Assembly: GCA_951406725.2 (NCBI GenBank)
Contig: OX597819.1
Location: 117,552,001-117,616,000 of the forward strand
DNA from: Octopus vulgaris
Taxonomy: Eukaryota
Length of the DNA: 64,000 nt
Direction: 5' to 3'
Shown: piece by piece, positions 8,585-61,381 of the stretch
Layout of the letters: every line of letters begins with the position of its first letter
Numbering within the stretch: the first letter of the stretch is position 1
Made by a program: the position numbers and the translations under genes
Notes under the pieces: model-generated
Told to the model about the DNA's origin: nothing
The model's input: only the letters and a program-made list of their open reading frames with translations
Databases searched by the model: none

Positions 8585-10093
8585 CTGCGGCAAACATATG
8601 CAAAGAACGTGCAGAAATCATTGCTGGATTCTATGCCGACGTCTTTACTGTCGAAGACCAAAATGTTCCATCTTCATCACCACTGACACCGGACTCTATA
8701 TCTACTATGAAATTTACACCAGCAATGTTACAACGCCACCTTAAGAATAAACGCAACTATGCTTCTCCTGGTCTCGATGGTGATACATACCTACTTCTCA
8801 AACGCGGTGAGTACTTTCTTCTAAGCCAACTCTCACTATTCTTCCAATTCTGTCTTGACAATGGTGTTACTCCAGAGCAGTGGAAAACTGCCAGTGTTAT
8901 CCCTCAGTTCAAAAAAGGTGACCGCACATCACCTGTCAACTAGTCTTACTAGCTGCATCGCCAAACTGATGGAAACATGTGTCAGGGAAACCCTCTGGAA
9001 CTTCTGGAAGTCTCACAGCCTCATGAAGCCGTCACAATTCGGATTTATTCCTAACTCCAGCTGCTGTAATCAACTCATCGATTTTCTTGAGGACATTACT
9101 CAAATCACTGATCGCGGATCCTCGGTGGATGTTGTTTACCTGAACTCTGCTAAGGCTTTTAACTCTGTTCCACGCAAAATATTTATGGTGGCACTCTCTG
9201 CGTTGGGCGTAAAAGACGATCTCTATAACCGGTTGAAGTCCTTTCTTTTCGGCCGAAAAGAGGTTGTCACTGTTCAAGGACAGCACTCTTCACCCTATGA
9301 GATAACATCCGGTGTACCACAGGGATCTGTTCTTGGCCCCCTTTTATTTGTTGCCTATGTTAATGGCATAGATGCCAACTTAAAGAATGCCACAGTGCTG
9401 AAATATGCAGATGACATCAAGCTGTACCTCGAAAAGAAGAGGTCAGATCCTGTACACTATAGATATCTATTGCAATCAGACCTGGACACAATGCAGCAGT
9501 GGATCATGGAGTGGCAACTCAAGCTGGCTGTGGACAAATGTACCACCAAATATTTTGGGTGGAAAAACCCAGTGTCTACTTACTCCCTCCACAACATTAA
9601 TCTCAAGCAGTTTTCGTGTGAACGTGACTTGGGTGTTATTGTCGATAGTGATTTGCGTTGGACAAAACACATCGCTAAAATTGCCAAGAAGGCATCACTC
9701 ACCAAGTCCTTTGTAAGCCGCTCTCCGGCTATCTATCTGCGGCTTTTTATAGCTATGGTACGATCTCACCTGGAATTTGCATCACCGGTCTTGAACCCCT
9801 ATCTTGCTCAGGATATTAATCGTCTGGAAGCCGTTAAGTTACGTGAAACCAAGAGAATACCCTCCATCAGGCATTTGCCATATTCTGAACGCCTTACTTC
9901 CCTGGGCATGGGCACATTCAAACTCCGACGTCTGGCAGCTGACTTGGCAGACTCCCATAAAATTATTAACCATCTTACAAACAATAACTCTGAGCACCTT
10001 TTGAAACTCCACCTGTCTAACATCCGTGGACTTATTTACAAAGTCAGAAAACAGCACAGCTCCCATGAATTTCGGAAACTTTTTTCACGCTAA
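8585..10093 (+). pseudogene. CR1-type reverse transcriptase ORF2 fragment (frameshift at ~8940)
   Basis: SPGLDG, WKTASVIPQFKKGD, [YRPI deleted]SLTS, SQFGF, GVPQGSVLGPLLF, YADDIKL, ERDLGV, HLEFASPV. Confidence 0.92.
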
Positions 10094-59970: not shown

Positions 59971-60002
<32 letters not shown>

Positions 60003-60126
60003 CATCCCAATCAAGGAACGGCCATAATAGGCCATTCACCCACTAGAAATAACAGCCAAAGCTTCAACCGCAAAATAACATTAATTCCGTAAACCAGGAG
60101 AAAATTAAAAAAACATTTACCCTGTA

Positions 60127-60233
60127 ATTTCTTATACGATGCACCGTTTCATCTACTGTTTAATGGTAAACTAACCTGATTAAATTAAATCAACCCAATC
60201 TTCCATAGGCCCTTAGATTCGTCAGTAAGAAAT
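60127..60233 (-). ncRNA. Type I hammerhead ribozyme (copy 1)
   Basis: Same motif 488 bp from copy 2; TCGTCAG (CUGACGA on minus) at 60219-60225. Confidence 0.88.
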
Positions 60234-60614
60234 AGCCAGATCGGAACAGATATTTTCACGAGGCATTTCTGTCCCTGCCTCGGCAATATCTGACCTAAAA
60301 TTTTCAAATCATCGCACTTGCGCCAAATTTATCGGCAGCAAATAAATATAAGCCGCCGATTCCATTACGGAATTAACCAGAAAATTCATAATTAATCAAT
60401 ATAGGGTGGCAAAAAATTTTGTAGAATTTTTTTGCCACCAGCGGCCTAGTGGGAAAAAATTAAATAGTCATAGACCATTTTTAAGTTCAACATCACAATC
60501 AAGGAACGGCCATAATAGGCCATTCACCCACTAGAAATAACAGCCAAAGCTTCAACCGCAAAATAACATTAATTCCGTAAACCAGGAGAAAATTAAAAAA
60601 ACATTTACCCTGTA

Positions 60615-60721
60615 ATTTCTTATACGATGCACCGTTTCATCTACTGTTTAATGGTAAACTAACCTGATTAAATTAAATCAACCCAATCTTCCATAGGCCC
60701 TTAGATTCGTCAGTAAGAAAT
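60615..60721 (-). ncRNA. Type I hammerhead ribozyme (copy 2)
   Basis: Reverse complement of 60834-60940 with core and stems intact. Confidence 0.88.
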
Positions 60722-60833
60722 AGCCAGATCGGAACAGATATTTTCACGAGTGCGATGATTTGAAAATTTTAGGTCAGATATTGCCGAGGCAGGGACAGAA
60801 ATGCCTCGTGAAAATATCTGTTCCGATCTGGCT

Positions 60834-60940
60834 ATTTCTTACTGACGAATCTAAGGGCCTATGGAAGATTGGGTTGATTTAATTTAATCAGGTTAGTTTA
60901 CCATTAAACAGTAGATGAAACGGTGCATCGTATAAGAAAT
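60834..60940 (+). ncRNA. Type I hammerhead ribozyme (copy 3)
   Basis: Stem I ATTTCTTA 60834-41 / TAAGAAAT 60933-40; core CTGACGA 60842-48; stem II ATCTA 60849-53 / TAGAT 60912-16; GAAA 60917-20; stem III ACGG-tgca-TCGT; cleavage triplet GTA 60930-32. Confidence 0.88.
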
Positions 60941-61194
60941 TACAGGGTAAACGTTTTTTTAATTTTCTCCTGGTTTACAGAATTAATGTTATTTTGCGGT
61001 TGAAGCTTTGGCTGTTATTTCTAGTGGGTGAATGGCCTATTATGGCCGTTCCTTGATTGTGATGTTGAACTTAAAAATGGTCTAGGACTATTTAATTTTT
61101 TCCCACTAGGCCGGTGGCAAAAAAATTCTACAAAATTTTTTGCCACCCTATATTGATTAATTATATATATATATATATATATATTCGCTATGAT

Positions 61195-61381
61195 AGATCG
61201 CTAGCCACTACACATCCTTTATTTTCTCTCCTTGTTTCTTTCTGTGTTCCTTTCTGTGGAAGAGCGTAGGATCGAAACGTTAAAGACTTTTTCACTTCCC
61301 GAGCCTTACACTAATACATATCTGTTTGTAGTCTACACCACCTGTCTTCGTCTTTTGTTTTTTTCTTGTGAATTCTCCCTA
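61195..61381 (+). mobile_element. Copy of the same pLTR-like repeat (motif 61250-61286), between (TA)n runs
   Basis: CTTT-CTGTGGA-a-GAGC-gtag-GATC-GAAA-CG-TT-AAAG; colinear with 45125-45330. Confidence 0.65.

Follow-up and report, generated by a model that had tools for sequence, protein, structure and literature searches.

An inverted hammerhead repeat in (TA)n

The window, that is, the whole 64,000-nt stretch of Octopus vulgaris DNA analysed, contains a repetitive element bordered by (TA)n on both sides (59972–60000 on the left, 61165–61185 on the right). It consists of a minus arm 1.5 units long (60750 to 60001) and a plus arm (60749–61164), which are joined head-to-head with an overlap of 2 nt (60749–60750). 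The minus arm comprises one full 488-nt unit, U (60263–60750), and a terminal partial unit (60001–60262, equivalent to unit 1–262), with the unit numbered such that unit position p = 60751 − window position; it ends against (TA)n at a fixed 3′ site designated A (~259). The plus arm comprises unit 433–488 followed by 1–363 and ends against (TA)n at a second fixed 3′ site, B (363); the “tail” of ~104 nt (unit 260–363; 61064–61164, plus strand) is terminal on this one arm only. A strong hairpin is predicted between sites A and B (60405–60439 on the minus strand, with the plus-arm copy at 61113–61147), and a conserved multibranch module of two stacked long-range helices encloses site A (60441–60560, minus strand).

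When both strands of the 64,000-base window were scanned with a descriptor, exactly three type I hammerheads with identical motifs were found: two on the minus strand, spaced 488 nt apart (60127–60233, predicted cut after 60135, and 60615–60721, predicted cut after 60623), and one on the plus strand (60834–60940, predicted cut after 60932); on the unit, cleavage is predicted after position 128. Each copy has an 8-bp stem I, CUGACGA, a 5-bp stem II, GAAA, a 4-bp stem III with a UGCA loop and a GUA site, and the scan arrived at the same coordinates, stems and cut sites as an earlier note on this DNA, which had described three complete type I hammerheads by inspection. From the hammerhead positions, a 488-nt monomer or circle would be self-excised from a minus-strand transcript (60135–60622). 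Also borne out was the description of the element as a 488-bp noncoding repeat within (TA)n, the copies of which differ at a handful of positions: there is one difference in the 262 positions shared within the minus arm, and three substitutions and a 3-nt deletion separate the plus arm from the minus unit across ~416 nt. The element is devoid of coding capacity, its longest stop-to-stop frame being 60 aa, and no open reading frame for a reverse transcriptase (RT) with a GIY-YIG domain was found within it or within the mapped copies. It is one copy of a young, protein-free, non-autonomous retrozyme family. Immediately to its right lies a short repeat (61190–61380, plus strand), the depth of which in assembled contigs far exceeds that of the element; elsewhere in the window, an open frame of 422 aa (8825–10093, plus strand) resembles, by eye, a fragment of a LINE reverse transcriptase.

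The Rfam search that the earlier note had proposed for the hammerhead came out negative: the element gave no match at gathering scores and no hammerhead family at E ≤ 5, the likely cause being the long loop 2 of 58 nt. MIR7504 and other Rfam hits were below gathering score, the top two spanning the inverted repeat, and were discarded. In the predicted minimum-energy fold, part of the hammerhead core pairs with stem III; the active fold lies above the predicted minimum by 2.1 kcal/mol locally and by 3.7 kcal/mol in the circle. The circular fold of the 488-nt unit amounts to −139.8 kcal/mol, compared to −110.3 ± 6.0 kcal/mol for 60 two-base-block shuffles. Self-cleavage of the unit as a monomer is predicted from the motif.

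An intact core was found in 250 of 252 units; the free position 7 of the core occurs with three alternative bases, fixed in 26 loci. One stem II pair is doubly changed from A-U to G-C in nine units of one subfamily, and two stem-end mismatches of the hammerhead are inherited. In the formal test, selection on the ribozyme received no statistical support: template-borne variants fell on 0 of 12 core sites (P about 0.13, not significant), and on 4 of 44 core-plus-stem sites versus 57 of 365 sites elsewhere (P 0.37, not significant). Other hammerhead types, canonical and minimal, are present in neighbouring repeats unrelated to unit U (L049:4700, L101:6730, L034:4779, L108:2633 and L139:5454 on the minus strand; L052:1224, L064:7090 and L077:45 on the plus strand; and L151).

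Copies, ends and relatives in the genome

When the genome (2.8 Gb in 227 contigs) was searched with the unit, 1317 first-look candidates were obtained, 40 of which were scored; full-length units are 97–100% identical and form arrays reaching about 14 units. A 27-nt word from the hammerhead matches the genome exactly at 689 places, its reversed control at none, so recurrence of the hammerhead is not due to chance. The unit is a dispersed repeat, its head-to-tail monomers being scattered over many loci and chromosomes. Eighty loci were mapped, namely the 40 scored ones (the window included) and 40 further loci taken from the first 100 of the 689 word matches listed, which lie on contig C1 and part of C2. 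In the 81 insertions contained therein, units abut one another directly, with no ORF sequence between them. The retrozyme reading of the earlier note agrees with such a dispersed tandem family in which the ORF is missing and the core is preserved. Words of the unit are also present in public runs from eight studies, and the unit is covered by assembled contigs of four runs, the kind of which was guessed to be RNA and the contigs of which are uninformative on strand, level and circle.

The 3′ ends of the arms are not scattered: 131 of 137 lie at site A (70, at ~259) or site B (61, at ~363), which are ~104 nt apart on the unit, and 126 of 137 adjoin (TA)n. Two-armed head-to-head insertions combine one end of each kind in 51 of 56 cases (A+B) and two like ends (A+A or B+B) in none; in the remaining five at least one end is degraded. 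Were the ends independent, 51 A+B combinations out of 51 would have a probability of about 1e-15. The 25 one-armed insertions end at A (17) or B (8). Head-to-head joints at other loci are mostly overlaps of 1–6 nt or short gaps, and a target-site duplication is indiscernible, the ends being in (TA)n. With regard to the limits of the element, the 488-nt unit of the earlier note stands, but its ends lie at two fixed sites inside the unit rather than where the ribozyme is predicted to cut; likewise, the copy on the plus strand is real, but it had been missed that both arms constitute one insertion event. Two fixed 3′ ends, a tail on one arm, an inverted arm and a (TA)n target make up an insertion signature of the Penelope type.

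Related families share this organisation. Family B has a period of about 488 nt, copies 83–90% alike and 2613 candidates, and is 60% identical to U (z 13); Family C is 56% identical to U. Family D (507 nt, 1437 candidates), the full-length copies of which are mostly 98–100% alike, can be aligned weakly to U (z 3.0) and better to B (z 7.6); it represents a second very young tandem family, likewise with the helix module, found at L174:30–740 (minus strand) and L270–L289. The older families B, C and E are found at L038:8050–8520 (minus strand), L069:5340–5760 (minus strand) and L290:1480–2370 (plus strand), respectively. Families B and D end in (TA)n at two sites equivalent to A and B, and among the nine two-armed D loci in which both ends are visible, eight clearly follow the A+B pattern, the A end of the ninth being shortened. 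The hammerhead-like cores of B, C and E are minimal, and their loop 3 is palindromic (identified by script in C and by eye in B and E); in B and C, core position 3 is U in place of C; Family D appears to have a longer stem III (by eye, the script having made no call).

Around site A, 94% of the pairs in the two stacked helices can form in 18 natural copies of four families, compared to 22–46% for slid controls, and 4 of 13 pairs are changed on both sides across the four families; the changes go back to a few inherited events and should not be read as 19 independent ones, and the helix structure was derived from the same sequences. A motif pattern for the module recovered 264 further copies in several subfamilies. 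The module is thus a candidate binding element for the reverse transcriptase.

Penelope-like elements and known retrozymes

Autonomous Penelope-like elements (PLEs) of the same genome, encoding RT and GIY-YIG, served as control. Of 20 pairs taken from the head-to-head pairs visible among 150 listed matches of the second of two PLE families, 19 are A+B and the other one is B+B. This family (L125:950–3180 and L190–L239), at least 150 copies of which are identical across 165 aa, several with 811-aa open frames, has a 41-nt tail and lies in (TA)n; in the first family, the two ends are about 30 nt apart. At L103:1244–6490, a young Neptune/Nematis-type PLE is found in which a 479-aa upstream frame overlaps a 781-aa RT + GIY-YIG frame; no canonical hammerhead was found in its pLTR by the descriptor.

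The idea that a Penelope-type RT mobilises the element in trans gains from the insertion signature and from the control, but a sequence-matched partner did not emerge. Although young PLE families reside in the same genome, neither these two nor the GIY-YIG loci have meaningful DNA similarity to U; among the PLE copies in the loci examined, the conserved module occurs in the own 3′ UTR of none of 136 PLE C-termini, and no pLTR sequence common to the unit and an autonomous partner was found. The class of the mobiliser is therefore well supported, since the control follows the same rule; mobilisation of the family by a Penelope-type enzyme is considered very likely. For P0001, an entry of the partner search, there was no solved relative. 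Two module copies 5.6 kb apart were also considered as a partner and rejected as a local duplication with no ORF; L290 (G000:C2:181369500–181379400) contains a 5.6-kb tandem duplication, ~99% identical, which may be real or a duplication of the assembly.

The class of element is already known. Animal non-LTR retrozymes have been described from coral, mussel and axolotl (PMC7229834, PMC7761336) and, as far as the accessible portions of these papers go, the octopus family resembles them in its tandem noncoding monomers with one type I hammerhead each, its low GC, its dispersed copies and its highly self-paired predicted circle. It differs from them in the length of the monomer (488 nt versus 150–450), in the two-armed A+B structure and in that no target-site duplication is discernible in (TA)n; further, it has a conserved structural module at its ends, whereas retrozyme repeats are described in PMC7761336 as lacking a motif that would point to the mobiliser. 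Expression and circles have been demonstrated for the animal retrozymes (PMC7229834, PMC7761336), whereas the octopus family is known from genomic sequence.

A link to Penelope is likewise in print. Mobilisation of retrozymes by PLEs was proposed in PMC7229834, and Li, Clavereau and Pollet 2026 (bioRxiv 10.64898/2026.07.22.740005) regard animal retrozymes as non-autonomous PLE derivatives, on the basis of co-occurrence and pLTR homology in frogs; of nine predicted frog retrozymes, one cleaved in vitro. The unit lengths reported there (51–972 bp) include the 488 nt of the octopus unit; the evidence presented here is instead the insertion signature, a homologous pLTR not having been found. The main text of that preprint contains no mention of octopus, cephalopod, mollusc or tail, and no end structure. 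PLE insertions are known to have inverted arms, to carry the tail at just one of their ends and to favour (TA)n (10.1101/2021.04.23.441226); an in vitro study showed that a PLE protein cleaves and extends each of the two strands, with starts at two internal positions on the RNA that delimit the tail (PMC11167929). With EN+ PLEs such as Neptune/Nematis and Naiad, as treated in the accessible parts of these two sources, the octopus family thus shares tandem and inverted insertions, the one-end tail, (TA)n and two internal RT starts; unlike them, it has no ORF, a tail of ~104 nt rather than 30–40 and a full stem III in place of a minimal hammerhead.

As to novelty, literature searches found no paper on a cephalopod retrozyme; repeat libraries or supplements could contain the unit. 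The available text of an octopus repeat annotation (PMC13282606) does not mention ribozyme, hammerhead or retrozyme, and its repeat library could hold the unit. The suggestion that the family is undescribed holds to that extent, but the connection between retrozymes and PLEs had already been argued (10.64898/2026.07.22.740005); what is absent from the compared papers, in the portions accessible, is evidence from an insertion signature. The mobilising enzyme and the circle as template are stated as open questions in PMC7229834, PMC7761336 and 10.64898/2026.07.22.740005. For the octopus family, priming sites are predicted exactly and a candidate cis-element shows covariation, and the same genome encodes two young, intact PLE proteins as candidates; with these, an in vitro assay of the kind described in PMC11167929 can address the mobiliser question directly.

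The RNA template and a proposed mechanism

Haplotypes were compared in 358 segments. The distance is 0.006 within an arm and equally 0.006 for segments of opposite arms, as against 0.023 for segments of different loci; when 21 polymorphic sites are considered, the respective values are 0.016, 0.013 and 0.267. Both arms of an insertion therefore carry one haplotype. Several loci have private variants on both arms, such as L158 and L148, in which four and two of them, respectively, are present in every unit that covers them, on both arms; in the window, all three hammerhead-bearing segments carry a variant absent from the family majority. The cut site is crossed by 120 of 131 arms and crossed twice by 68, and 91 arms are longer than one unit, so the template was continuous across the cut site, either as a circle or as an uncleaved multimer. 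Strings spanning unit junctions have the exact length in 270 of 271 cases, and the 5′ ends of arms are spread over the whole unit, with 0 of 135 within 5 nt of the cut site (unit 124–134). Priming at A or B on a linear monomer that had been cleaved would yield only 131 or 235 nt. Read-through and the single haplotype fit a circular template, and the template probably was circular.

It appears likely that an enzyme of a Neptune/Nematis-type PLE copies the predicted self-cleaved 488-nt circle from both strands of the cut DNA. Tandem copies would be transcribed and the RNA cut to monomers by successive hammerheads, as the motif predicts; a host ligase would close the monomer, by analogy to other animal retrozymes. 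The PLE protein may then attach to the conserved helix module and cleave (TA)n on both strands, whereupon one strand would prime at A and the other at B, which would leave the observed pattern of ends. Each strand would copy round the template for a variable length, and the two cDNAs would finally be joined 5′-to-5′ at short overlaps such as those seen at the junctions.

An uncleaved linear multimer could be copied by the same Penelope-type mobiliser, with arrays lengthening later by unequal exchange and the hammerhead being dispensable. In vitro, the hammerhead of an anole PLE is indeed dispensable and uncleaved RNA is the main template (PMC11167929); local amplification is invoked for retrozymes (10.64898/2026.07.22.740005), the constraint on the octopus hammerhead is not significant, and some arrays (L038, L041, L048, L057 and L064) are mosaics for which one monomer circle fails to account. 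After insertion, some of the arrays are probably altered by unequal exchange. However, the private variants fixed throughout both arms of L158 and L148 need a step from one unit to many, and the spread of arm 5′ ends over the entire unit as well as the retention of hammerhead-like cores in all sister families examined also speak against a multimer, which is regarded as unlikely. If, on the other hand, the RT jumped repeatedly from the 5′ end to the 3′ end of a cleaved linear monomer, the same single-haplotype tandem arrays would be produced, but such jumping is hard to reconcile with the exact length of virtually every junction or with the complete absence of arms stopping at the cut site, where about three would be expected if ends were uniform and more if jumping often failed; a linear monomer is thus very unlikely to have been the template.

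The units might also be merely truncated pLTRs of an autonomous PLE yet to be found. The end signature is the same as that of PLEs, the older sister families have minimal hammerheads of the PLE type, frog retrozymes resemble pLTRs (10.64898/2026.07.22.740005), and the loci examined are a part of the family; but in none of the 81 mapped insertions does ORF sequence intervene where units join, and the module is missing from all 136 PLE 3′ UTRs examined. Neither result agrees with a solo pLTR of a catalogued Penelope family, which the earlier note had envisaged as the less novel outcome, and truncated pLTRs are a highly improbable explanation. Ancestry of the family from a pLTR is likely, its present dependence on a linked ORF is not. 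Inverted repeats beside (TA)n are hard to assemble, and an artefact of the assembly had been considered from the outset. Folding back would give equal ends, which none of the 56 two-armed insertions has, and the adherence to the A+B rule therefore excludes it; moreover, the copies are dispersed on many chromosomes and the words of the unit recur in public runs of several studies. Arms produced by LINE twin priming should cover separate stretches of the template, but here both arms are often longer than one unit. Altogether, the chance that the element is a fold-back artefact, an ordinary satellite or a product of twin priming is negligible.

It is about an even bet that a PLE RT dimer grips one RNA circle via the module and rolls it from two fixed start sites at once, one per cut DNA strand, and that the ribozyme sets the unit which is copied, normally the monomer and, when one hammerhead is crippled, the dimer; a clan of 480–510-nt families would have kept the module while its hammerheads changed from the minimal to the full type, and no partner of matching sequence would survive. 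If circles are rolled from two sites in this manner, the insertions would document in the genome how an animal circular RNA is retrotransposed by a rolling-circle route. At a single locus, L066, two units alternate as XYXY; Y has a change that breaks stem III, raising the cost of the active fold to 4.0 kcal/mol versus 2.1 kcal/mol, and Y is present on the opposite arm too, a pattern that copying of a dimer would be expected to leave.
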